Below are positions 3,463 through 20,087 of a DNA stretch of 27,320 nt, one piece after another. Each line of letters starts with the position of its first letter. Position 1 is the stretch's first letter. Source of the DNA: Hormoscilla sp. (GTDB lineage Bacteria > Cyanobacteriota > Cyanobacteriia > Cyanobacteriales > Desertifilaceae). The translations under genes were made by a program, and so were the position numbers. The notes beneath the pieces are model-generated. The model was not told where the DNA came from. It worked only from the letters and a program-made list of their open reading frames with translations, and ran no database searches. Location of the stretch: positions 1 through 27,320 of the forward strand of contig JBFRWI010000015.1 of assembly GCA_051439505.1 (NCBI GenBank), in the 5' to 3' direction.

Positions 3463-4419
3463 TTAGACAACAGTATCGGATACGGGTTCTATAGTAGCTT
3501 GCAATTCAAAAGATCCCGATCCTAGGGTAACCTCATCTATCCCCAAGGACTCTAGCAAACTCATTCCTCCTGACAGGATAGGTGGCATCTCTATTCCCAG
3601 TATATCAAGAGATGAATCAATTTCACTCAAGTCCAGACTGACCGTTACTTCTCCTGATGCTGTCACGATCGCCCCCGTATCGATGGCATCGGATAGCACA
3701 TCTGGATCGGCCACATTCAGTTCCAGGGAATTAGTCTGGTTGTCGAAGCTGAAGTCAAATCCTGTAATGTCCGTTTCCGCCGTGACGGTGCCATTTCCCC
3801 CTGTTAACTCGATATCGAATAAATTTCCTAATGCTTCGGCGGCATCCTCTAGAGTGATATCCCCTACATCGGGAATCTCTACTCCATCTAAGATGCCCGC
3901 GATCGGCCCTTCGGAGGGAAAAGTAATGCTCAACTCCCCGTCTGGCGCTGGTGCGATCGCGATTAAAGTATCTCCCGTTGGCGTTGTTACATCTAATTCG
4001 ATTTCCGCGACCGACTCCGCGATCAAACTTGACAAATCTGCCAGAGTATCTTGAGGACTCAACCCCAGGATACTGCTGACCAAGGGGACATCGACAACGA
4101 CATTTTCATCTACAGCTTCTTCCAGTGCCTCCGTGACAACCGTCACTTCACCTGTGGCACTGGCGTCAAAGCTAACTTCTGTCGGTAATCCCACCATCAT
4201 GGCCATCAGGGGGTTACCGGCTTGGACATCCCCGGAAATCGCCACCTCTATATTGTAGGCTGTGGTATCTGCTGCTGGTTCGGCTGCGAGAACTTGCGCT
4301 ACTGAGGTCGTTTCATTATCTATCTCCCTTGACGCTACAGCATCGTTTTCTTCAGAAAGAAGACGTTTGTGACGGCGGCGTGCGAATCGATTTCTTTTTC
4401 TTTTGATTTCCTCAGGCAT
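3463..4419 (-). CDS. Hypothetical extremely acidic protein with a basic N-terminus
   Basis: 318-aa ORF with GGAG upstream of the ATG; D/E/T/S/V/G-rich; no recognisable family. Confidence 0.75.
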   Translation of the reverse strand: MPEEIKRKRNRFARRRHKRLLSEENDAVASREIDNETTSVAQVLAAEPAADTTAYNIEVAISGDVQAGNPLMAMMVGLPTEVSFDASATGEVTVVTEALEEAVDENVVVDVPLVSSILGLSPQDTLADLSSLIAESVAEIELDVTTPTGDTLIAIAPAPDGELSITFPSEGPIAGILDGVEIPDVGDITLEDAAEALGNLFDIELTGGNGTVTAETDITGFDFSFDNQTNSLELNVADPDVLSDAIDTGAIVTASGEVTVSLDLSEIDSSLDILGIEMPPILSGGMSLLESLGIDEVTLGSGSFELQATIEPVSDTVV

Positions 4420-5370: not shown

Positions 5371-6147
5371 TTAACCGATGATTTCGTTTACCTTCTCCAA
5401 CAGCCGATCGGCCAACTCGAATATATCTTCTTCATCGAGACTCTCGCCCAAGACATTATCTTCCTTGGTGAGTAGTTCCCGGTCTCCAGATGCTACCGGT
5501 TCTTTGACGGACATATACTTCACAATTTCCCTGAGTTGCTTTCCCTCATTGGGGATCTTGACGATCTGTTCTAATTGTGCCGCAAAGTCTGAGGTAGACC
5601 GAGTTCCCAGGAATTCTCGGAACTCCATGGCTGCGGGGTCGGGACTTTCCAACAATTCTCCCACAGATTCAAACCAACTGATGTAGTCCAGCAGGTCTTC
5701 TAAGGAACCCATTTCTGATAATAGTACCTCTGAGGTCTCTGGTTCTAGGTCTATTGTCTTGACAAATCCCCATAGTTGGGCTTCACTCAAAGATTGGTCT
5801 AGACCCACGGCTACGTAGCCCCGACAGTTGGTCGCCCGATCGGGGGACAATTGCATTATCTCCTCTCCTGGACGTACAGCACGACATTCGATCTTTCCCA
5901 TCTGGGGAATGACCAGATCCGCTACGTCGAAGAGCGATCGCATACTTGGGTGCCAACTATCGCCCGTGAGTTCGGAGTCAATTTGCAGCCATTGCAGGTA
6001 GCTGCGCACGGCATACACGGCGAGGGTATTCAGGTAAACTTGTTCTGCTTTGGCCCCATTGGTTTGTTCGGCGGCAAACCTGCGGGCCAGGTGATGTGCC
6101 TCCCCAATTAGGGGGACTTTGATGGGGGTAAAATCTATCTTGTTCAT
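5371..6147 (-). CDS. DUF1822 family protein (N-terminal domain only, acidic helical tail)
   Basis: AEQVYLNTLAVYAVRSYLQWLQI..DSWHP..DVADLVIPQMGKIECRAV..GYVAV..AQLWGF is the DUF1822 signature. Start moved to ATG 6147 (MNKIDF), just after the upstream stop. Confidence 0.85.
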   Translation of the reverse strand: MNKIDFTPIKVPLIGEAHHLARRFAAEQTNGAKAEQVYLNTLAVYAVRSYLQWLQIDSELTGDSWHPSMRSLFDVADLVIPQMGKIECRAVRPGEEIMQLSPDRATNCRGYVAVGLDQSLSEAQLWGFVKTIDLEPETSEVLLSEMGSLEDLLDYISWFESVGELLESPDPAAMEFREFLGTRSTSDFAAQLEQIVKIPNEGKQLREIVKYMSVKEPVASGDRELLTKEDNVLGESLDEEDIFELADRLLEKVNEIIG

Positions 6148-6152
6148 GGCGT

Positions 6153-6956
6153 TTAGTCCTGGTAATATTGGGCAGCAATTTCTTTCAGCATGGGGAAGAC
6201 TCGGCGAGTCCAAAATGCTCTGACTGTTCCTATGGGTTGGCCAAAATCAGCAGCCAGACTGTCTAAGGTTTGTTTCCCCAGTTTGTGCTTGATAATTACT
6301 ACCTGGGCATTACATGCGGGACATTTCTTGAGATGGCAGTTTCGCAATTTTTTCCCGGGATCTGCTTCCACCTGGTCGCGGATCTGCTGCAATATCTCGG
6401 CGGCGGTCTTGGTTTCCTGTTGGATTAATTTATCCCAGGGCAGCATTGGTTGGGTCCAGGTTTCAGGGGGTTTAGCAGTTTCGCTATCTGCTAGAGTTTG
6501 TCCGGACTCTCCCACAGGACGGTCTAGGGAATCTGGTTTTTTGGGATCTTGCCTGTAGAGTTCGATTTTCCGATACTTCAACTGGCCGATGTTATTCAGA
6601 AAGACTGCCAAGTTAGCTTGAATTGACCGGCCCTCGAACAGCTTCAATTCCCTTAGCCGCGTGGACATGACGCCGAGGATATAATTCTTGGCTTCGGCGA
6701 ATTCTGGATGACTGGAATTCGCCAAATTTTCCAGGGATTGAAGTTCCCGGATCAGTTGATTCTGCGCCCGCCGCCATTCCCGTGTCTCCTTGAGGTTGGG
6801 AGGCGGGTTCGACTGAGAATACTTGCTGACGGTGAGGATCAGGTCGATGATTTCCTCGTCCCCAGGGGCTTTGTGGGGATGGTTCCTCAACATGGCCTCG
6901 AATTCTTCGTAGTTCATCGGTCCCTTGGGTTGAGTTAGCTGGTTACTCATGTTCAT
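6153..6956 (-). CDS. Divergent sigma-70-like / C-terminal HTH regulator
   Basis: SLDRPV linker, then EADPGKKLRNCHLKKCPACNAQVV..TLDSLAADFGQPIGTVRAFWTRRVFPML (region-4-like HTH), paralogous to the C-terminus of 16512-17135; GGAGG RBS. Confidence 0.75.
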   Translation of the reverse strand: MNMSNQLTQPKGPMNYEEFEAMLRNHPHKAPGDEEIIDLILTVSKYSQSNPPPNLKETREWRRAQNQLIRELQSLENLANSSHPEFAEAKNYILGVMSTRLRELKLFEGRSIQANLAVFLNNIGQLKYRKIELYRQDPKKPDSLDRPVGESGQTLADSETAKPPETWTQPMLPWDKLIQQETKTAAEILQQIRDQVEADPGKKLRNCHLKKCPACNAQVVIIKHKLGKQTLDSLAADFGQPIGTVRAFWTRRVFPMLKEIAAQYYQD

Positions 6957-7060
6957 GCCGCAGTCCTCCGACTTTGTTGCATGGCTTTTTCTCCTTTATT
7001 ACATCTGTGGGGCGGATATCCCCTTCAGCACTGGTTCCGATGGTCGGCCTGGATTACCGG

Positions 7061-7229
7061 GCGGGTACCACCGGTTGCTACAGGGGGGATCGTCTATCTA
7101 GTCTTCGACTCGGGCGAGGAAGTTTATGCAATTTTTGGCGATCGAAGGCAGGTACCACCGGTTGCTACAGGGGGTATCCCCTATCTGGTCTTCGACTCGG
7201 GCCAGGAGGTTTATGCAATTTTTGGTGAT
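7061..7229. repeat. Two-copy tandem repeat, 87-bp period, upstream of the sigma-like gene
   Basis: GGTACCACCGGTTGCTACAGGGGG..GTCTTCGACTCGGGC.AGGA.GTTTATGCAATTTTTGG.GAT starts at 7064 and 7151. Confidence 0.9.
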
Positions 7230-7309
7230 GGGTGAAATGTGATGAGGCTGGAAACGATCGCCTCTAAACCGGCGTTACCAGTCAATTAGTCAATTAGTCT
7301 CCTGGCCCG

Positions 7310-8000
7310 CCGTGGGTTTAAACCCACGGTTAATAGCTTAAGTGGGTTAAAACCCACTCTCTTGCCTTATCAGATGCGCGTTTTACCCTCGTGTCTAGGC
7401 TCCGCTTATCCCTGGGAGGCGATCGCAGTGGCCACTTTTGGTCACGCCCATGGTGGATGCTGACCTTGGTGGTAAAACGGGAGTACACCATCCCAACGCT
7501 GGCTTTGTGGAATAACAGCACTAGGGTTTGCGGAATGACAGCACTAGGGTTTGCGAAATAACAGCATTAGGTTTTTTCGAGTAACAGCACTAGGTTTTTC
7601 CGAATGACAGCATTAGGTTAGGCAGCTAATGTACAGGTTAGGCAGCCAATGCAGCCTGCCAGTTTCACCAAAAACTGCCCCCAAACTCCAAATGGACAAT
7701 GTAGCAACTGGCGATCGCCTGTGGGGAGATCGCTTCATTGACGGGGGCAAGACCACACCCGTGGCAACCGGCTGGCACCGGTGTAGACGCTGCCACGCCC
7801 GAACCCTAAAGGGTCCGGCTACAGATCCCTTCGCCCGCCTGCGCGGGCTTAATTATAAAATTCCTCGTTTGACTCGTTCCCTGGCGGAGCCTGGGAAAGC
7901 ACACCCGAGGCTCTAAAAATCGGCGAGCATCATTTTAGCGACAATGTTGAGAGTGGGTTTTAACCCACTTAAGCTATTAGCCGTGGGTTAAAACCCGAGG
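7310..8000. repeat. Segment bounded by ~52-bp inverted REP-like ends (7310-7361 and 7949-8000)
   Basis: CCGTGGGTTTAAACCCACGGTTAATAGCTTAAGTGGGTTAAAACCCACTCTC is the near-perfect reverse complement of 7949-8000. Confidence 0.8.
7509..7623. repeat. Five 23-bp tandem repeats (nnARTRACAGCAYTAGGKTTnnn), followed by two 20-bp AGGTTAGGCAGCYAATG repeats
   Basis: Units start at 7509, 7532, 7555, 7578 and 7601. Confidence 0.9.
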
Positions 8001-8117: not shown

Positions 8118-8235
8118 TTGGGTTTCGTGCGGAAACCCAACCTACAGTTACTCAAGTGGGTGTTGGGTTTCGTGTCTCAACCCAACCTACAGGAAAACGC
8201 ACAGTTGCGGGGATGGTGGGCGGTGCCCACCCTAC
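8118..8235. repeat. Cluster of three GTAG-type REP palindromes
   Basis: Two GTTGGGTTTCG..CCCAACCTAC copies and one TGGTGGGCGGTGCCCACCCTAC; the latter family also occurs at about 4548, 5257 and 20094. Confidence 0.8.
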
Positions 8236-11200
8236 GGTAAGCCTTGGCAGATGAAGGCCCCCCAGTATTGGGGCGAGGCAAAGGGTTTTTCTCCAAACTC
8301 TTTCAGCTTCTCTTGCCTCTGGCTGATTTTCTCGGCTACTATCAATAGCTTACGCCATTCTTCTCTGCTGGTTTTTTTGACTTCATCCGCCCTTTGTTCG
8401 ACGGCGCGTTCGGCTTCCGAGATCATCTCTTGCACTTCGGACTGGGTCAGGATACGCAGTTGCTGTTGCGCTTTTTGCAAGGCTTCCGGACGACTCAGGG
8501 GTGGGGAGGTGGCAGAACCTTTGCGATATTGGTGGTAGTAGATGGAAAATATCGCTGTGGCTAAGTCGTCTACTGCCCACAAGGTACTAATGACGCTTCT
8601 GACTCCCGCACATAAAAATCCAATTCCTATGGTCAGAATGTCATCAGTTATATTCCCTAATCCGAGATTGGTTTCGCAGCAGGAGAGAAAGACTTCCTCC
8701 AGGTGGGGAACTCGCCATCCGGGGGTGAGCATTTGCCCCAGGGTGATTTTCCCATCTGCTAAGGTGAGGGCTGATTCCAGGGGGTTGTCGATGCGAGATT
8801 GGGCGTGGTGGGTAGAGAGGAGACTGCTAACCTGCTGCAATAGCTTCTGGTATTCGCTGACTTTGGCTTTTTCGCCTTTGAGTCGCCGCGCGTCTGGGAT
8901 GTCATACAGTTGCGCCACGGTTTGGGCTTCCCAGTTGGTCAAGGGGAGGTCGTTTTTGGTATCTTCTACGATGCCCATTGTCAGGGATCCCCCTAAATCC
9001 CCCTTGGAAAGGGGGACTTGAGTTTGAGATCCCCCTAAATCCCCCTTAGAAAGGGGGACTTGACCGGTCCCCCCCTTTCTAAGGGGGGCTAGGGGGGATC
9101 TCTTTTGGTGGCAAAAGTCGAGGATTTGGCAACTGGGAAGGGTGCGGATGAGAAATTTATCGCCCAGGTATTCGTCCTCGCCGAGGGGTAAGGCGGCAAA
9201 GGGAATCTGATGCAGATAAATGTGAGGGATAAGGATGAGTTCGCTGATGCCTTCCAGGTGCTGGGCGATTAAGTCGTTGAGATGCAACCGCTGGGATAGT
9301 TCCCTGAGGATGCTAGTTATCTGCTGTTTCCAGGTTTCCTTCTCATGGCAATAAGGTATTAACCAGTTCTGCCATAGCCACTTTTGCAGGGTTCCCCATC
9401 CTTGTTTGGTGCAGGTGTGGCAGGTAATCTGGTTCTGACGCAGGATGAAGATGTGGGTGTGGTCATTCGTGGTGTAGAAACTGAGAATAGCGGTGGTAGG
9501 TTGGTGGATGAGGCTTCGCAGTTGGGTAAAGTTGAGATGCAGTCCTGCTATGGCGGGGTCGAGTTTGTAGAGTTGTTGCCGCAGTTGCAGTTTCTCGGCT
9601 TCTAAGGCGGCAATCTCTTCATTGCGGGCTGCTAAAGCCGCCCTGTTGCGCTTGGTGCCTCTGGTTCCTACGAGTTCTTTGTCCCCTTGAGGAGTTTCCT
9701 CTGACCGCATTCCGTCTATTTGTTGTTGCCGTTGGTTAATCGCGTCGATAATCTCCTGGATTTCTGGGGGTATCTCTCCTTTAGCATACAGGTCGTTGTG
9801 GGCGATGAGGTCGGCGAGGCGCTGGGAACGGGAACGTTCGACATATTCTAAGGCAATGTCAAGCTGTCCAGTGTTGACGCAAGCTTGTACCATGTTCTCG
9901 AAAACCCCGATTGATTCTTTTAATATTTCCTGGCGGCGTTCTTCTGTGGTCGCCCAAGCGCGACTCTTTTCTACCGCTTCGATGGCTTGGGCGTATCCTG
10001 CAATGGCTGTTTCCCAGAAGCCTGCTGTAAAAGCTATGTTGCCTAAGTTGCGTCCCGTTTGGAGACAGCCTAAGGGAAAGGCTGTGGGAGTTCGGACTGT
10101 CAGGGCATCATGGTAACATTTAATCGCCTTTTCGAGATTCTCGCTGCGCTCTCCTGCTATCCGGTCGCTGTAAGCATTACCCAGATTATTCTGAGTCATA
10201 GCCCAATCAACTGGCAAAGCTGATGGGGTGTAGACTTTCTGGGCATCATGGTAACAAAATATCGCCCTTTCTCGATTCTCGCTGCGCTCTCCTGCTATCC
10301 GGTCAGAGTAAGCATTCCCCAGATTATTCTGAGTAGCTGCCCAATCAACTGGAAATGCTTCAGATGTTCTGACTTTCAGGGCATCATGGTAACAGGCGAT
10401 CGCCTTTTCGAGATTCTCGCTGCGCTCTCCTGCTATACGTTCATAGTAAGCAGTACCCAGATTATTCTGAGTCATAGCCCAATCAACTGGCAAGGCTGAT
10501 GGGGGGGTGTAGACTTTCAGGGCTTCCTGGTAACATTTAATCGCCCTTTCGAGATTCTCGCTGCCCTCTCCTGCTATCCGGTAGCTGTAAGCAATACCCA
10601 GATTATTCTGAGTCATAGCCCAATCAACTGGCAAGGCTGATGGGGTATAGACTTTCAGGGCATCATGGTAACAGGCGATCGCCCTTTCTATATTCTCGCT
10701 GCGCTCTCCTGCTATCCGGTATAGGTAAGCATTCCCCAGATTATTCTGAGTACCTGCCCATTGGACTGGAAAGGCTTCAGATGTGCTGACTTTCAGGGCT
10801 TCATGGTAACATTTAATCGCCCTTTCGAGATTCTCGCTGCGCTCTCCTGCTATGCGGTCTTTGTAAGCAATACCCAGATTATTCTGAGTCGTTGCCCATT
10901 CTTGGGGAAATTCTTCTGGAGGGAAAACAGTAAGGCAAATTTCATAACCACCTATGGCAATCTCTAGATTCATCGCCCGATCGCCCAAGGGAAACTGACA
11001 CATCAGGTTACTGAAATTAACAATATCTGCTGCAATGCCTCGTGCTGTTTCCGGTTCCCTCTGTTGTAGGGTTTCTCCGAAGTATTGCAATACCCGCCAC
11101 AAGTTAGTATCCAGTTTATCCAAGTTTTGTTGCAGCAGAGGGAACACCGCCTCTGGCGTGGGGTTTTGTCTTACCGCCTGCAACACCTCCATCAAGAAAT

Positions 11201-11435
11201 TCCAATAGTCTTCCCAGGTAGGTGAAGCTGCTAGTCGTGTGGCAAATTCGCGTAACCAACTAGCATTGGGATCTCTCTCCTCCGCCATCTGTGCCGCTAC
11301 CTGTTCCATCACCTGCACCAACCCCGAATCTACCAAGTCTGGGCGTGCTTGCAATATCTCTATTCGTTGCTCTGGGGGGCATTGGAGCAGGGCGTCAATT
11401 AGATTTCGATAGGCATCAATGCGTTGTTCGTCCAT
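8232..11435 (-). CDS. TPR-repeat + CHAT domain protein (caspase/HetF-like protease)
   Basis: Six near-identical 46-aa repeats WAxTQNNLGxAY..AIxCY..AL; CHAT motifs ELILIPH..LHQIPFAAL, STHHA (His), VFLSCCET (Cys), VISTLWAVDD, PFASPQYWGAF. Probable start MDEQRIDAY at 11435; the ORF track extends to 11624. Confidence 0.92.
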   Translation of the reverse strand: MDEQRIDAYRNLIDALLQCPPEQRIEILQARPDLVDSGLVQVMEQVAAQMAEERDPNASWLREFATRLAASPTWEDYWNFLMEVLQAVRQNPTPEAVFPLLQQNLDKLDTNLWRVLQYFGETLQQREPETARGIAADIVNFSNLMCQFPLGDRAMNLEIAIGGYEICLTVFPPEEFPQEWATTQNNLGIAYKDRIAGERSENLERAIKCYHEALKVSTSEAFPVQWAGTQNNLGNAYLYRIAGERSENIERAIACYHDALKVYTPSALPVDWAMTQNNLGIAYSYRIAGEGSENLERAIKCYQEALKVYTPPSALPVDWAMTQNNLGTAYYERIAGERSENLEKAIACYHDALKVRTSEAFPVDWAATQNNLGNAYSDRIAGERSENRERAIFCYHDAQKVYTPSALPVDWAMTQNNLGNAYSDRIAGERSENLEKAIKCYHDALTVRTPTAFPLGCLQTGRNLGNIAFTAGFWETAIAGYAQAIEAVEKSRAWATTEERRQEILKESIGVFENMVQACVNTGQLDIALEYVERSRSQRLADLIAHNDLYAKGEIPPEIQEIIDAINQRQQQIDGMRSEETPQGDKELVGTRGTKRNRAALAARNEEIAALEAEKLQLRQQLYKLDPAIAGLHLNFTQLRSLIHQPTTAILSFYTTNDHTHIFILRQNQITCHTCTKQGWGTLQKWLWQNWLIPYCHEKETWKQQITSILRELSQRLHLNDLIAQHLEGISELILIPHIYLHQIPFAALPLGEDEYLGDKFLIRTLPSCQILDFCHQKRSPLAPLRKGGTGQVPLSKGDLGGSQTQVPLSKGDLGGSLTMGIVEDTKNDLPLTNWEAQTVAQLYDIPDARRLKGEKAKVSEYQKLLQQVSSLLSTHHAQSRIDNPLESALTLADGKITLGQMLTPGWRVPHLEEVFLSCCETNLGLGNITDDILTIGIGFLCAGVRSVISTLWAVDDLATAIFSIYYHQYRKGSATSPPLSRPEALQKAQQQLRILTQSEVQEMISEAERAVEQRADEVKKTSREEWRKLLIVAEKISQRQEKLKEFGEKPFASPQYWGAFICQGLP
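8986..9100. repeat. GATC-bounded CCCCCTT/AAGGGGG hairpin repeat embedded in frame in the CHAT gene
   Basis: 42-bp direct repeat at 8986 and 9028 plus an inverted third hairpin; encodes RSPLAPLRKGGTGQVPLSKGDLGGSQTQVPLSKGDLGGS. Confidence 0.88.
10070..10900 (-). repeat. Intragenic TPR tandem array, 138-bp period, six copies
   Basis: CCAGATTATTCTGAGT recurs at 10181, 10319, 10457, 10598, 10736 and 10874. Confidence 0.92.
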
Positions 11436-11715
11436 ATGTGAGTACCGTGGTTTTGCTCTTATCCTGTATTCGAGCTTGCCAAAGGCATTTATGCACTTCT
11501 CCCACCAAGATATCTTATCGCCCTCGGCCTGCATGGGTTTGGAGAGCCTCCGTTCATCCCCCAGTTTACTGGTGGGGCCGGGCCTGCGGACATCACGCGA
11601 GTAGCCACCAGCAACCACCGTCACGGGCGATTATCTGCTTGACATTTCAGAGGATATGAGGAAGAATATCAGACAGGAGGGGGCGCATCCAAGCTTTGGG
11701 GGAGCAGCTCGCAGG

Positions 11716-14537: not shown

Positions 14538-15029
14538 CTACTTTCCTGCCAGGACTGACTGTCGATCGCCTAATTTTTGGCTGTCAGGTGGGTTAGACCC
14601 ACCGCTCTTTTGCCACTCTTTTGGCCGTACCGCTTGTTCCACCACTTTCACCACATTCTGCCAGGATATATCAGAGCGTCCCAGCAATTCTTTCAGTTCT
14701 TGCAAAGCTGCTTCCGCTTCACTCTGTTGCTGCAACGGAGTCGAGAAAGCCTTATTTTTTCGTTGCGCCGCCCTGATGCCCCTGCTGGCCGCTTGAGCCA
14801 GCAGATCCGCAGACTTTTCTCTCATCCGGTTTTGTTGCCAATGCCATCCTTCTTCCGTGGTCGAATACAGACTAGGCAAGCGATTCAGCGCGTATGCGAT
14901 CGCATCGGCCTTATTAATTAACTTGACCACATCCCCTGGCATCCTCTCTAGCTGCCGGTCAATTTCTTCTGCTGCTAGGGGTTCCATTGCATTGCGATAG
15001 TTCGCTCCTACTGATTTTTTTTTCATCAT
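14538..15029 (-). CDS. Late competence development ComFB family protein
   Basis: YRNAMEPLAAEEIDRQL..ADAIAYALNRLPSLYSTTEEGW ComFB signature; C-terminal LKELL..ISWQNV motif. Confidence 0.82.
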   Translation of the reverse strand: MMKKKSVGANYRNAMEPLAAEEIDRQLERMPGDVVKLINKADAIAYALNRLPSLYSTTEEGWHWQQNRMREKSADLLAQAASRGIRAAQRKNKAFSTPLQQQSEAEAALQELKELLGRSDISWQNVVKVVEQAVRPKEWQKSGGSNPPDSQKLGDRQSVLAGK

Positions 15030-15130
15030 CCCTTTTTTCCATTCAAAATGCCAACATTTAAGATTTATTTAACAATCTCTACTCGACCCAATCTATGCTA
15101 CCTGGTAACTGTCAAGAGTGAAGAGAGTTG

Positions 15131-15361
15131 TTAGGGAAGTGTCAGCGCGTTTAATTTATCCTTCGCGAGCCACTGACGGCCTAATTCGAGAGATTCTTGC
15201 TTGACTTTACCATCCATCACCGCCCACTGCAATTCCATAAAAGCCTGGAAGTCTTCCAAGCCATATTTACCGTCCAAAAGCCGTTGCAGTTGATATTCTG
15301 TTTCTCGGGAAATATAACCGGCTTTGAGGGTATTTTTGACAATTTCGCTAATTTTATCCAT
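15131..15361 (-). CDS. Conserved small cyanobacterial hypothetical protein
   Basis: 76 aa; ISEIV..LKAGYIS..E.QL..LQ.AVM.GKVKQES resembles small proteins recalled as neighbours of ComFB genes. Confidence 0.7.
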   Translation of the reverse strand: MDKISEIVKNTLKAGYISRETEYQLQRLLDGKYGLEDFQAFMELQWAVMDGKVKQESLELGRQWLAKDKLNALTLP

Positions 15362-15420
15362 TTTGGCGGTAGTGGTAACTTCGAGGGTATGAAGGGCGAT
15401 CGGGGTCTGAGAATGCCTTC

Positions 15421-16285
15421 TTCTATTTATTACTCTTGCCCTACCCTCCCTTTTGTTACAAAAAACAGCTAATCTTTACAAAACTTGACAATAAGCTGGG
15501 CTGGGTTGAGAGGCCAACCCCTTTAAGAACTGGCGAATCGTGAACTTTTCGCCAATACTTTCGCGATCTAGTTGTCACAGAAGATCGGCATCGGTTATGA
15601 CCGGCTCAAGTCGGGCAACGGTCCTTCCCGGCGCGACTTCTATTTCTTAACTCTTGCCAACCCCTCCCTTTTGTTACGAGAAACAGCTAATCGTTACAAA
15701 ACTTCACAATTAGCCCGTCGCCCATAACCGGCGATTACCCTCACCCACGGGGAGATGATCTATGAGAAAAGGCATTGCGAACATGAGGAACTGGCGCTAA
15801 CCAGCAGGCATTTCGCCTTTAGTCAGTTATCTCCCGTTCATGCAACCTTTTCGCCTCTCGATCATTTTTCTTTCCTTTGTTGCCAGCAATAGGCTTTCTT
15901 CGATCTGAAGAAGGGCGTGGCAGACCTGAAGGGTTCCGTAGATCTGCTACACGCTTCGGAAGGAAGTGCGATCGCGTTCCAATTGCTTGGCACGTGACCT
16001 ATTCCTTACTCAAGCCAAACCCCCTCTTCCGTTACCAGAAACAGATTATTGTGACAAAACTTTACAATCAGACCGGTGGTAAGCGCTTTGCCTTGACTAC
16101 AAACGGGGATGGCCTGCTGAAGAAAAAGGCGTCGCCCCAGAACGGTTCTGTCCCACGGCCACGCCACTATTCGCAAGTGAGCGATCGCGTCCAGACTTGG
16201 TTCGATCGCTGCCTCCTATTTCTTACTCTTGTCCTACCTCGCCTTTTGTTACCAGAAACCGAAAATTGTCACAAAATAATTCCCG
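15421..16285 (-). promoter_or_regulatory. Four co-oriented copies of a ~72-bp motif (15421-15492, 15638-15710, 15997-16068, 16214-16285)
   Basis: Plus-strand consensus CTATTtcTTACTCttGcc-pyrimidine run-TTttGTTACcAGAAACaG..AATnGTnACAAAAcTTnACAAT; regulatory role inferred. Confidence 0.8.
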
Positions 16286-16511
16286 CCGCCACCGGGTTTC
16301 TGGGTTACAGGCGATCGGCGATACAACAATGCACCCAGTAGTAACCGGCGTCGGAGCGGATGTACTAGCAAGCAGAGCCCTCAGCGCCATCCGTAATTTC
16401 CCAGTAATTTTCCCCAAGGTGATATGGAAATCCACGGAAACGGGTATTATTTATTTAACGCCAGGAATAGCACCGAATTATCCAGAATCTGTTTTTGATG
16501 GAGTAGGGAAA

Positions 16512-17135
16512 ATGTACTTATCCCAAGAAGATTTATTCAATCAGCGACTGCGACACCTAGTCAAAGAAGCCCAGAGTCATAAACCCATGACTAAAAGAAG
16601 GCAGCTGGCTTTAGAAAGGCTAATTCGCGAAGTTCAGAAATCTCCCCAGTTCTACCGCCCCCCGAGCAGAGGACTTTCTCCTGCTGCCGCTCGCGAGATA
16701 TATCAAGAAGCCTCACAAGAACTTTGGTTTCAAATTTGTCGCGGAATAGATAATTACCAGTCCCAAAAAGGCGAGGTAATAGCATGGATTAATGAGCATT
16801 TTCGTTGGCGATTCAAGGATGCAGTTACTGCATGGAAAAAGAAAAAATATGTAGATCTAGATCCGGAAACAGTGATGCAAACTACAGAGACGCCAAGCTT
16901 AATGGATCGATTGAGAGATCTGATTGCAGAAGACCCGGATGGCATTTTTCGGCAGACACATATAACAGACCATCCCGAGGCCAACTTTCAAGCCTTGGCA
17001 CTCCGATGGCTTGAGGGCCAATCATGGGAACAAATGACCGCTGAATTGGGTATTAAGAGCGTAACCCTGAGACAATTTTACCGTCGTCAATTAAAGAAAT
17101 TAGTCCAAAAATTAAGAGAAGATTTGCAAGCATAA
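16512..17135 (+). CDS. Sigma-70-like (ECF-sized) regulator
   Basis: IYQEASQELWFQICRGIDNY..VIAWIN..RWRFKD (region-2-like); EDPDGIFRQTHITDHPEANFQ..GQSWEQMTAELGIKSVTLRQFYRR (region-4 HTH). Probable start ATG 16512 with GGAG upstream. Confidence 0.82.
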   Translation: MYLSQEDLFNQRLRHLVKEAQSHKPMTKRRQLALERLIREVQKSPQFYRPPSRGLSPAAAREIYQEASQELWFQICRGIDNYQSQKGEVIAWINEHFRWRFKDAVTAWKKKKYVDLDPETVMQTTETPSLMDRLRDLIAEDPDGIFRQTHITDHPEANFQALALRWLEGQSWEQMTAELGIKSVTLRQFYRRQLKKLVQKLREDLQA

Positions 17136-17326
17136 AAATTCGGAAGTATTGAGAATTGTTAATCACCTCTGCCCTCAATACTTCTCGGTTAGCAACCTGT
17201 CCGGAGCGATAATACGCGCCGCGTGGGGGACTCCTAGCGCCAGTCACCGGTCGCGGCCAGACCGGGGAACAGCAACAGCTCTGCCGAGCGGAAGAAATTT
17301 CGCTAGCTGCAAAGCCCTATAGGGTA

Positions 17327-17398
17327 ATTGTCAAGTTTTGTAACAATTGTCGGTTTCTGGTAACAAACAGCAGCATGCGCCTTGTGTAAAAAATAGAA
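17327..17398 (+). promoter_or_regulatory. Fifth, inverted copy of the 72-bp motif, pointing at the DUF1822 gene
   Basis: ATTGTCAAGTTTTGTAACAATTGTCGGTTTCTGGTAACAAA..GTAAAAAATAGAA is the reverse complement of the consensus above. Confidence 0.8.
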
Positions 17399-17494
17399 TG
17401 CTGCGAAAAGAGGAACTAATAAAGATATATGCCGATCGGGATAATTTCGCAGCCGTTCGCCAGAAAACCATCAAAATATAAGTAGGGACCGCCG

Positions 17495-18511
17495 ATGTTT
17501 ACAACTACGCAATGCCCAATAAAATTAATGAGCGACTACATAAAAACAGATCCGACAATATTCGCAGTGCCACTGACAAAAGCAGATCGTAGCATCGCCC
17601 AAAAGTTTAGCAAAGGGCAAGGTCTATCTCAACAAGCCGAACGGGTTTATCGCAATACCTTAGCGGTGTTAGCCGTGCGATACTACTTGCAGTGCCTGGA
17701 AATAGAGACAGACTCGGAGGCCAGCGATAGTTGGGATCCGGTGATGCAAACCATGGCGGATGTGGCCGATCTGGATGTTAAACATTGGGGTAAATTAGAA
17801 TGTCGTCCAGTTTCCCCCTCAGAAGAGTCAGTCTACATTCCCCCAGAAGTTTGGGATGATAGCATTGGCTGCGTTGCTGTCGCGATCGACCCTTCGGATC
17901 CAAAAGCAATAAGGGAAGCGAAATTGCTGGGGTTTGTGCCGCGCCCCCAACAGGCGATCGAGGATATCCCAGAAGAGTTGCCCATCTCAGATTTCCAACC
18001 CCTGGATGCTCTGATTAAGGCATACCACAAACAGAAAGTTACTCCCATTCAACCACGGCCTACTCCCCTATTGGTAAACCTGAAGCAGTGGTTTTCCGGA
18101 CTCTGCGACCAGGAGTGGCAACCGGTGGAATTGGTCCTCGCTGTCAACACTCGCAGCGCTGCTGTTGCCACCAAGCCAAAAGTTGACTCATCGAGTATCA
18201 GTCGCGCCAAGGTGATCGACTTGGGGATGCAACTGGCCGATCGCGCAGTAGCACTGGTGGTACGGCTGACACCCACCCCGACAGCAGAAATAGATGTCCG
18301 GTTGCGGCTGTACCCAGCAGGTAACGCCATTCATCTGCCACGGGGTCTGAAACTGATTGTAGAGGATGATACTGGAAATGCTTGTATGGAAACGGAGGCC
18401 CGAAATGCCGACAACTGGATCCAACTGGAGTTTGGCGCCCTCCCAGGGGAAAAGTTTGCTGTCAAAGTGGCTTTGTCCGATGCGGAGATAGTCGAGCACT
18501 TTACGATCTGA
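17495..18511 (+). CDS. DUF1822 family protein (full length)
   Basis: AERVYRNTLAVLAVRYYL..SDSWDP..DVADL..GKLECRPV; VNLKQW..WQPVE; C-terminal AKVIDLG..RLYP..LPRGLKL..DNWIQLEF..GEKF. The start may be at 17528. Confidence 0.9.
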   Translation: MFTTTQCPIKLMSDYIKTDPTIFAVPLTKADRSIAQKFSKGQGLSQQAERVYRNTLAVLAVRYYLQCLEIETDSEASDSWDPVMQTMADVADLDVKHWGKLECRPVSPSEESVYIPPEVWDDSIGCVAVAIDPSDPKAIREAKLLGFVPRPQQAIEDIPEELPISDFQPLDALIKAYHKQKVTPIQPRPTPLLVNLKQWFSGLCDQEWQPVELVLAVNTRSAAVATKPKVDSSSISRAKVIDLGMQLADRAVALVVRLTPTPTAEIDVRLRLYPAGNAIHLPRGLKLIVEDDTGNACMETEARNADNWIQLEFGALPGEKFAVKVALSDAEIVEHFTI

Positions 18512-18645
18512 GCCAGTTCGATCGCTTTGCCAACAAGGGTAGCACTCTCCCGATGGAAATGTCATCGGGAAGAGCCTGAAAATTTTCTCCCAAGATGAAA
18601 AAACCGATCCCGATCGGGTAAACTCTATATAGTCACATCAATCTC

Positions 18646-18674
18646 TCAATTGTCAATTGTCAATTGTCAATTGT
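18646..18674. repeat. Heptamer tandem repeat (CAATTGT)x4, STRR-like
   Basis: Read directly; other heptamer runs at about 4667-4694, 20308-20333, 21147-21167 and 26088-26125. Confidence 0.8.
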
Positions 18675-18731
18675 CCCCGATGGTGGAGTGCGATCGGCTG
18701 AGGAGGAGAAAAAACTGGAGAGAAAAAAGCA

Positions 18732-20087
18732 ATGGAAAGGCTAGTGAGACTCCATTTGATCGAGGAAAGGTCATCGGAGGGGTTCCAGGCGATCCTGAGA
18801 ATAAAAGAAGATGGCACTCAGACTAATGGGCACAATACCCTATTTAACACGGTAGGTTATTTGCCCCCATTACCACCCGATCTAAAAGCAGCAAATGCTG
18901 CTTGGCGGCAAACCTATTATGAGTTAACGGATGTACGCGGGTGCATTGCCCCCGAACCGGGGGTACGCATTAGCCCGAAACCGGGAGTGACGAACTATTC
19001 TAACTCAGACAAGAGCGAAGAGTTGGTAAAACAACTGAATTTATGGCTGAATGAAGCGGGCGATCGCCAGTGGATGAGCATCCAAAAGATGTTAACAGCG
19101 AACGGTTCTAATAATCCGCATGACGAGATTAGAGTAGTCCTGGAAACAGAATCCAGCGAGTTGCGACGCCTGCCCTGGTTAGAGTGGGATCTGTTCAAAG
19201 AGTACTACCAACATGCAGAAATTGCCCTGAGTGCTCCAGTTACAGAAATACTGAGAATCAACAGCTTGGGCTCTTCGGTGAGAATATTAGTGGCCGTGGG
19301 TAGAAGCGATGGCATTAATACCGAGTCAGACCTAGAAGTAATCGAGAGTTTAAGGGCAAAAGGGGCAGATGTCACCTGTCTAATCCAGCCGGAACCGAAG
19401 GAATTGTACGATGCGCTGAGGTCAGATATTGGTTACGACATCTTTATTTTCACGGGTCACAGTGGCAGCGGGCAGGATGGTAAAATAGGTTGGATTGAGG
19501 TCAGCGAGACCAGTAGCTTAAAAATTGTTGACTTTAGACAGGCCCTGGGACGGGCGATCTACAAAGGATTGCAGTTAGCGATTTTTAATTCCTGCGATGG
19601 CTTAGGATTAGCGGAACAAGTAGCTAAGTTGAAGCTGCCTCAGAGTATTGTCATGCGGGAACCAGTGCCAGACAAGGTGGCGGTGGATTTCTTGAAAGAA
19701 TTTTTTGAGGAGTTTACTGCGGGAAAATCGTTTTTTGGCTCAGTCAGAGAAGCAAGAGAACGTCTGGAACATTGGAATTTAGTCTATCGGGGGGCTCAAT
19801 GGTTGCCTAGCATTTGCATTAGTCCGTCAGTGACGCCGCCCACTTGGGAAAGTCTGGGTGGAGGATCTTGCCTTTCCGACGATCGCACTCCCACGGAACC
19901 GCCGCCAATGATTTCCACTGCGTCTATTCATCAGCAAAGCCCGATCGCATTAACGTTAATAGCAGTTCTGGTAGGTTTAGTTGCCGGTTGTGCCATCACC
20001 ATATCGGCGATCTTCTTGTTCAACAAATCTATCAATAGTCCAGAACCAGAACCGGTCCCCGACCAGCGATCGTCCCAATCATACTAA
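18732..20087 (+). CDS. CHAT domain protein with a C-terminal transmembrane helix
   Basis: LRRLPWLEWDLF, RILVAVG..GIN, FIFTGHS (His), AIFNSCDGLGLA (Cys), IVMREPVPD, WLP; hydrophobic IALTLIAVLVGLVAGCAITISAIFLF near the C-terminus. Confidence 0.9.
   Translation: MERLVRLHLIEERSSEGFQAILRIKEDGTQTNGHNTLFNTVGYLPPLPPDLKAANAAWRQTYYELTDVRGCIAPEPGVRISPKPGVTNYSNSDKSEELVKQLNLWLNEAGDRQWMSIQKMLTANGSNNPHDEIRVVLETESSELRRLPWLEWDLFKEYYQHAEIALSAPVTEILRINSLGSSVRILVAVGRSDGINTESDLEVIESLRAKGADVTCLIQPEPKELYDALRSDIGYDIFIFTGHSGSGQDGKIGWIEVSETSSLKIVDFRQALGRAIYKGLQLAIFNSCDGLGLAEQVAKLKLPQSIVMREPVPDKVAVDFLKEFFEEFTAGKSFFGSVREARERLEHWNLVYRGAQWLPSICISPSVTPPTWESLGGGSCLSDDRTPTEPPPMISTASIHQQSPIALTLIAVLVGLVAGCAITISAIFLFNKSINSPEPEPVPDQRSSQSY

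Follow-up and report, generated by a model that had tools for sequence, protein, structure and literature searches.

A divergent sigma-like protein, a DUF1822 protein and a CHAT protease as a candidate protease-gated transcription switch in a cyanobacterium

We analysed a 27,320-nucleotide stretch of DNA from the cyanobacterium Hormoscilla sp. (NCBI GenBank assembly GCA_051439505.1, contig JBFRWI010000015.1, positions 1 to 27,320 of the forward strand), hereafter the window, which is a whole 27.3-kb contig (C15) of a genome carrying its own hetZ, patU and hetF-like genes. Three co-oriented open reading frames (ORFs) on the + strand of the window encode a sigma-like protein, a DUF1822 protein and a CHAT protease. 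We find that the N-terminal domain of DUF1822 travels with sigma genes and its C-terminal half with protease genes. By analogy with the HetZ-PatU-HetF circuit of Anabaena, the cassette is most likely a protease-gated transcription switch: DUF1822 would sequester the sigma-like protein through its N-domain, dock the EACC2-CHAT protease through its immunoglobulin-like (Ig-like) half and be cut after Arg220 on activation of the protease, whereupon the N-terminal fragment would be degraded and the sigma freed. We put the probability of this reading at roughly 0.6.

The three proteins of the cassette

The preliminary description of this DNA, made from the sequence alone, had named three co-oriented genes for an extracytoplasmic function (ECF)-sized sigma-like protein, a full-length DUF1822 protein and a CHAT protein; all three were confirmed, with the same boundaries. 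EACC2-caspase genes with neighboring ECF sigma and DUF1822 genes were catalogued by Kaur et al. (2021, eLife; PMC8195603), and because a computed description thus already exists, the cassette itself is not new. The gene-neighborhood enrichment that had been put forward as a check was found in a close-relative set made up of the best 80 of 575 GTDB matches, where a CHAT gene directly follows DUF1822 at 74 of the 79 loci that could be evaluated, and a sigma-like gene directly precedes it at 54 of 74.

The first gene (16512..17135, + strand) encodes 207 residues from an ATG preceded by GGAG, in a frame open from 16197, and its close relatives P0123 and P0125 start at or near the same Met. Compared with PDB sequences, the profile of the sigma-like family matched RpoE (2q1z, E 2.4e-4) and SigK (4nqw, E 4e-3) in both region 2 and region 4, and 24 of 49 family members match TIGR02937 at E<=0.01. 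These similarities suggest a divergent ECF-type, sigma-70-like factor, which taken by itself is weakly sigma-like. Such divergence would also suit a reading in which DUF1822 is an activator or chaperone of this protein, or in which the 'sigma' is a DNA-binding regulator no longer using RNA polymerase, with cleavage switching the output off: profile comparison (HHalign) of the family gave 2%, no match, with HetZ and a weak 12% with a 390-residue class of partner sigmas. We consider this very unlikely in view of the region 2 and region 4 matches, the other partner classes that do pass TIGR02937, and the inhibitory action of PatU3, Csx30 and CalpT, the counterparts of DUF1822 in the systems compared below. 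The HetZ-family models NF037963 and NF037964 matched three other loci of the same genome and none in the window. Elsewhere in this genome, a sigma-like domain of the same family forms the C-terminus of a 1012-residue protein that contains a P-loop NTPase motif and has no DUF1822 neighbor (C157:11915-14953, - strand), and a partial copy follows a membrane domain (C1:16318-16977).

The second gene (17495..18511, + strand) encodes 338 residues from the ATG at 17495, or 327 from that at 17528, and its product is complete, spanning positions 1-369 of the 370 in the PF08852 profile (E 9e-70). Its AlphaFold2 model (mean predicted local distance difference test score, pLDDT, of 87) consists of an alpha/beta N-domain (17561..18040, + strand), proposed to bind sigma, and a beta-sandwich C-terminal half, and is not TPR-like. 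The N-domain is predicted to have the restriction-endonuclease (PD-(D/E)xK) fold. Judged by what we take to be the PD-(D/E)xK consensus, its catalytic D...(D/E)xK triad is incomplete: Asp and Glu are kept in the window's subfamily with Arg in place of Lys, and the triad is absent from other subfamilies. The Ig-like beta-sandwich (18197..18505, + strand) is proposed to be the protease-docking domain on the basis of the model, its co-occurrence with EACC2-CHAT genes and its resemblance to PatU. Some DUF1822 members carry a HEAT insert. The DUF1822 profile had no significant match among PDB sequences, and an ESM Atlas search with the N-domain gave no usable match. Fusions of DUF1822 with sigma or CHAT were sought among longer proteins, yielding one tandem DUF1822-DUF1822 protein only, which is weak evidence of absence.

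The third gene (18732..20087, + strand) encodes a 451-residue caspase-like protease with a CHAT domain (Pfam, E 8e-7). The intact His (FTGHS) and Cys (FNSCD) motifs and the C-terminal transmembrane (TM) helix of the preliminary description were borne out: His243 (codon 19458-19460) and Cys288 (codon 19593-19595) are the same in all 45 relatives aligned, every one of which has a conserved 1-170 region as well as CHAT, and a single hydrophobic segment (about 19926-20021, peaking at residues 399-417) is followed by only about 20 polar residues. The EACC2 domain was assigned through context, not with the profile of Kaur et al. (2021). The C-terminal tails of relatives carry CHASE2 or WD40 domains in our data, and kinase and STAND tails have been reported (PMC8195603). 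An EACC2-CHAT profile matched nothing in PDB. The window's protease is not HetF, as it reaches 17 bits against the HetF model NF045509, whose cut-off is 1200, and its family is homologous to the HetF-like protein on contig C93 of the same genome (HHalign 98.9%).

Domain partners, a candidate cut site and the proposed switch

As a less biased view than the best-match set, we took a census of PF08852 matches from 61 sampled genomes, comprising all those of the same class, two from G025 and, for a distant family with small genomes, 6 of its 16, for a total of 97 proteins including those of the window's own genome. Among the 60 proteins with both DUF1822 halves, a sigma gene is adjacent in 54 and an EACC2-CHAT gene in 46 of 59. 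Of 29 proteins scored as N-domain only, 13 actually carry a divergent C-half, and all 13 adjoin a sigma gene; of the 16 that truly lack a C-half, 13 have a sigma gene, and an EACC2-CHAT gene was seen in 0 of 15. Conversely, seven of the eight C-only proteins are directly followed by an EACC2-CHAT gene, which in the eighth lies 2.1 kb off, and our own hidden Markov models (HMMs) found no sigma gene adjoining any of the eight. At two of these eight loci, and at two further ones, a canonical ECF gene occurs together with a different N-domain; other C-half proteins carry TRADD-N or PIN domains. All six EACC2-CHAT genes of the window's own genome are preceded by a DUF1822-C protein. Distances across 32 de-duplicated loci divide in the same way: those of the N-domain correlate with those of sigma (rho 0.70, partial 0.58; partial 0.11 with CHAT), and those of the C-half with those of EACC2 (0.71, partial 0.62; partial 0.07 with sigma). 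Of the 21 genomes sampled from the same class, 19 have between 1 and 9 DUF1822 matches each.

The sigma genes beside the N-domain fall into the window's 210-residue class, the 390-residue class that passes TIGR02937, a 450-500-residue class homologous to it (HHalign 99%), and a 189-residue class from a distant lineage, in which the N-domain forms the start of a TM/TonB-C protein. In the small genomes of that distant family within the phylum (L194-L199), these proteins are about 1000 residues long, and after them come the ECF sigma gene and a gene for a zinc-ribbon AAA-TPR protein. Several variants of the cassette were also seen. One (L236:663-2973, L177, L245-L247) pairs a canonical ECF sigma with a protein that joins an unnamed N-domain to the C-half of DUF1822, and stands before a pentapeptide-repeat EACC2-CHAT gene; for this alternative N-domain (C175/L177/L245/L246), a MazF-like identity found no support from Pfam, PADLOC or a five-sequence PDB profile. 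The TRADD-N variant is present in the window's own genome (contig C67). One clade (L129-L132, L136, L018) has a TPR-CHAT gene immediately ahead of DUF1822, which in L130 and L136 separates DUF1822 from the sigma gene, and DUF928 comes after CHAT-CHASE2.

The linker of DUF1822 had been suggested as the cut site, with two sequences given for it. One of them, QKVTPIQPRPTP, lies in the disordered stretch between the domains (18038..18067, + strand; pLDDT<50), is unconserved and is interrupted by a 12-nucleotide in-frame insertion in a related strain, and it was rejected as the site. The other, VNTRSAA, lies instead inside the C-terminal half, in an exposed loop (18143..18196, + strand; low pLDDT at model residues 210-213) that holds a conserved Arg (VNTR220|SAA; codon 18152-18154). 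After exclusion of 20 of 371 proteins without an anchoring element, this Arg is kept in 192 of 198 non-redundant loops, which are 11-44 residues long and otherwise variable, and it is near-invariant in subfamily A1. The pattern hydrophobic-Arg-small occurs in 126 of the 198 loops, compared with a mean of 32 and a maximum of 52 in shuffled loops, and the consensus reads A-F/L-A/S/N-F-R|S. Taken together, these patterns make it likely that DUF1822 is cut after R220 by the CHAT protease. The anti-sigma circuit of the preliminary description, with DUF1822 as the cleavable inhibitor, thereby gains indirect support from the domain co-occurrence, the P1-like Arg loop and the HetZ precedent, and loses its first candidate site.

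In the switch that we favor, the nuclease-fold N-domain would hold the sigma-like protein inactive while the membrane-anchored protease docks on the Ig-like half. The activated protease would then cut the 36.2-kDa DUF1822 protein after Arg220 into fragments of 23.5 and 12.7 kDa, in a manner dependent on Cys288 and Arg220; general proteases would degrade the 23.5-kDa N-fragment, as reported for PatU3 and CalpT, and the released sigma would activate promoters. As the window's CHAT protein has only a TM anchor, the trigger would come from the membrane, from dimerization or from a partner.

Several observations weigh against this reading. Both the binding of sigma by DUF1822 and the cleavage of DUF1822 are inferred, on indirect evidence. 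The 207-residue protein falls below curated cut-offs (TIGR02937, E 4e-5, 23 bits against 42.9), and a Pfam scan gave no sigma match for it. Twenty of the 74 close loci lack an adjacent sigma gene, and an adjacent co-oriented EACC2-CHAT gene is missing from 13 of 59 two-domain DUF1822s and from every one of the 13 whose C-half is divergent. Every count reported here includes kin, which are not independent of one another, and for both correlation contrasts the bootstrap interval reaches zero (0.00 to 0.58; -0.03 to 0.28). The crossed correlation could also come from gene order, as the N-domain adjoins sigma and the C-half adjoins CHAT, with recombination in the linker. The loop Arg could be structural, since it is mostly kept in DUF1822s without an adjacent EACC2-CHAT gene (10 of 10 aligned divergent DUF1822s have it). 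In the window's subfamily, Asp92 and Glu102 of the nuclease motif (D81/E91 in the model) are invariant, which leaves room for a catalytic role of the N-domain. Lastly, the window's protease has no sensor tail, whereas the tails of 120 complete relatives have a median length of 425 residues.

The last three of these points each bear on a different account of the cassette. The retained loop Arg fits the published proposal of Kaur et al. (2021; PMC8195603), in which the EACC2-caspase cuts itself on receiving a signal, if DUF1822 serves as an uncut adaptor to sigma, a role that would explain the domain co-occurrence equally well. We nevertheless regard autoproteolysis as unlikely: the exposed loop varies except for one conserved hydrophobic-Arg-Ser motif, which agrees with the HetF site as mapped, and the sister protease HetF acts in trans on a separate substrate, their genes being unlinked in this genome (hetF on C93, hetZ-patU on C58). 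The invariant acidic pair would suit a protease-activated nuclease zymogen, that is, a defense or cell-death effector whose operon the sigma only drives. This is quite unlikely, given that the motif Lys position holds Arg in 150 and Lys in 9 aligned N-domains, that the Asp/Glu pair is lost across whole sigma-linked subfamilies, that N-only proteins still stand beside sigma genes, and that PADLOC matched none of the three proteins.

As for the protease, its missing sensor is real, because the relatives' tails are long and the sequence around the CHAT stop is unchanged in the DNA runs of one study, possibly of the source sample; a frameshifted tail after the stop was rejected, as no sensor remnant was found downstream. 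Alternatively, the family may work as proposed and the window's copy be a decoupled remnant without a sensor, either constitutive or silent, in which case a different one of the six paralogous proteases would serve its DUF1822. None of the nine short-tailed relatives among the 120 has a TM segment, close relatives (over 60% identity) are few, and a promoter-like element is duplicated with four copies facing away from the sigma gene, all of which speak for a remnant. All three frames and the dyad are intact, however, and a strain about 90% identical keeps DUF1822 and the 5' part of CHAT on a contig from an RNA library, which is not proof of transcription; we rate a remnant as improbable.

Surrounding DNA and a second module

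A promoter-like element of about 75 nucleotides occurs in five copies around the sigma gene, built of an HLR1/RpaB-type direct repeat, GTAAC and ATAGA blocks; elsewhere in the genome, one partial copy is the only other clear match. Four tandem copies on the - strand (15419-15500, 15637-15717, 15994-16075 and 16210-16290) face away from the sigma gene, and the fifth (17321..17402, + strand) faces the DUF1822 gene. The first block fits the HLR1/RpaB direct repeat as described in PMC6525291, with one mismatch in four copies. Among 74 related sigma genes, 16 have an HLR1-type block on the coding strand and 6 have one on the reverse strand within the 350 nucleotides upstream, compared with a shuffled mean of 0.07, and in 11 of those 16 it is followed by a CGTAAAA-like sequence at ECF-like spacing; such blocks also occur at unrelated genes in the genome. 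By its sequence, the element could be a site of the RpaB type, the sigma's own promoter, or the two at once. The four leftward copies span ORF-poor spacers and possibly give rise to small RNAs; Rfam gave no match on 14900-18800. Directly after copy 1, and ahead of a ComFB-domain gene (14538-15029), lies an ORF of 76 codons without Pfam match (15131-15361, - strand), which is covered by the related strain's contig in the RNA library.

A second module is found on the - strand of the window. It consists of a DUF1822 N-domain-only protein of 280 residues without the Ig-like half (5371..6213; PF08852 positions 2-217) and a 267-residue sigma-like protein of the same family (6153..6956; E 6.7e-21 to the family HMM), with a TPR-CHAT protein lacking an EACC2 domain encoded upstream (8232..11624, - strand). 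A TPR-CHAT gene is near six of the eight short (253-280 residues) N-only DUF1822s, whose C-terminal tails frequently contain a D-R-E motif. The gap that separates the TPR-CHAT gene from the second sigma-like gene contains a tandem duplication of about 80 nucleotides and a short tandem repeat array (6974-7235 and 7510-7625). The 318-residue product of a gene at 3463-4419 (- strand) is acidic, has a basic N-terminus and matched neither Pfam nor NCBIfam models.

Comparison with known systems

With the cassettes of Kaur et al. (2021), the window shares the three genes and a family of caspases with a constant N-terminal domain and a variable C-terminus; it differs in lacking the variable C-terminal sensor or effector domain. 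In that catalogue, DUF1822 is called a TPR protein, and the available part of the paper (PMC8195603) gives it neither an anti-sigma or substrate role nor a cut site. Our literature searches, which mostly did not cover subscription journals, found no paper assigning DUF1822 either role and no experiment on these cassettes. What is new here is a proposed role for DUF1822 resolved by domain, the nuclease fold predicted for its N-domain, the prediction of a specific scissile bond and a possible kinship with PatU. Multicellular cyanobacteria carry several such cassettes, joined to varied sensors. If the proposal holds, DUF1822 gains a function, a large bacterial caspase-like protease family gains a named substrate and exact bond, a one-step route of signaling from protease to sigma is added, and an origin of the heterocyst circuit is suggested.

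The type III-E CRISPR system Csx29/Csx30/CASP-sigma likewise combines a CHAT protease with a two-domain anti-sigma: the N-domain of Csx30 binds sigma, and the cut lies in a loop of the protease-docking C-domain (PMC10028731), as we propose for DUF1822. In contrast to Csx29, the window's protease is not a TPR-CHAT and not RNA-triggered, and Csx30 is reported to need no specific P1 residue (PMC10028731). Neither Cas7-11 nor any other cas gene was present among the 15 window ORFs scanned, no dedicated CRISPR array search being run, and Csx30 was not among the matches listed in sequence or fold searches of DUF1822. In the CalpL/CalpT/CalpS system, the anti-sigma again consists of a toxin-like N-domain, MazF-like in CalpT, and a small C-domain; CalpT is cut by the neighboring protease, and sigma release needs further degradation (bioRxiv 10.1101/2024.05.08.593097). 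CalpL differs in being a Lon-type protease gated by cyclic oligoadenylate, and CalpT in being cut in an Ala-rich motif and having another N-domain fold, according to the available part of that preprint.

The closest parallel is HetZ/PatU3/HetF of Anabaena PCC 7120. The preliminary description had treated HetZ as a helix-turn-helix regulator; a 2026 paper instead reports that it is an ECF sigma factor and that PatU3, called a potential anti-sigma, inhibits its activity (PMC13342950). The other precedent that had been invoked, cleavage of PatU3 by HetF, is thereby strengthened: HetF cuts PatU3 at T-N-Y-R117|S118, and substitution of the Arg abolishes cleavage (PMC9457339). Because HetZ is an ECF sigma inhibited by PatU3, and HetF cuts PatU3, the sigma/inhibitor/CHAT logic is proven for this sister circuit. 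Common to both are an ECF or, in the window, ECF-like sigma with the gene of its inhibitor (proposed in the case of DUF1822) directly downstream, a membrane-anchored CHAT protease, an R|S site in that protein (cut in PatU3, predicted in DUF1822) and, in the models of both PatU and DUF1822, a beta-sandwich that follows the Arg loop at the C-terminal end. The window's genes are not orthologues, however, the genome having its own unlinked hetZ-patU and hetF; the window's 207-residue sigma lacks the insertions of HetZ, and the N-terminal part of PatU is helical, not nuclease-fold, with an extra helix after the Arg.

The comparison of PatU with DUF1822 extends to the C-terminal half. As in DUF1822, the R|S site of PatU stands in a loop ahead of the C-terminal domain, a likeness of sequence pattern only: of 30 PatU sequences, 29 have Arg in the HetF-cut column, which in a Nostocaceae-type PatU stands 141 residues before the end, just as it does in PatU3. 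The one exception is the PatU of the window's own genome (L200:2623-3714), with Glu in that column and Arg-Gly four residues later. In the ESM Atlas, the top two non-DUF1822 matches of the C-half are PatU clusters at 0.78, a lead only, and the two beta-sandwich models share several top-50 fold matches. HHalign of the Ig parts scored a weak 24.8 (E 5e-4), above 30 shuffles; that of the whole C-half scored 23.2, compared with a shuffle maximum of 21.3 and 22.6 for an unrelated alignment. A global alignment paired the two R-S sites at a score that was not significant, an HMM search started from the Ig domain of DUF1822 failed to recover PatU, and full DUF1822 against a single PatU gave nothing. 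Homology of PatU and the DUF1822 C-half is no more than plausible on these comparisons. More tentatively, and with the odds somewhat against it, DUF1822 and PatU may be distant homologues within a large family of caspase-gated sigma switches, of which HetZ-PatU-HetF would be one specialized branch. The Arg loop and Ig-like domain would then be a portable 'cut-me' tag on varied cargoes (a dead-nuclease anti-sigma domain, a second anti-sigma domain, TRADD-N and PIN), and the dead PD-(D/E)xK fold a new class of anti-sigma domain.

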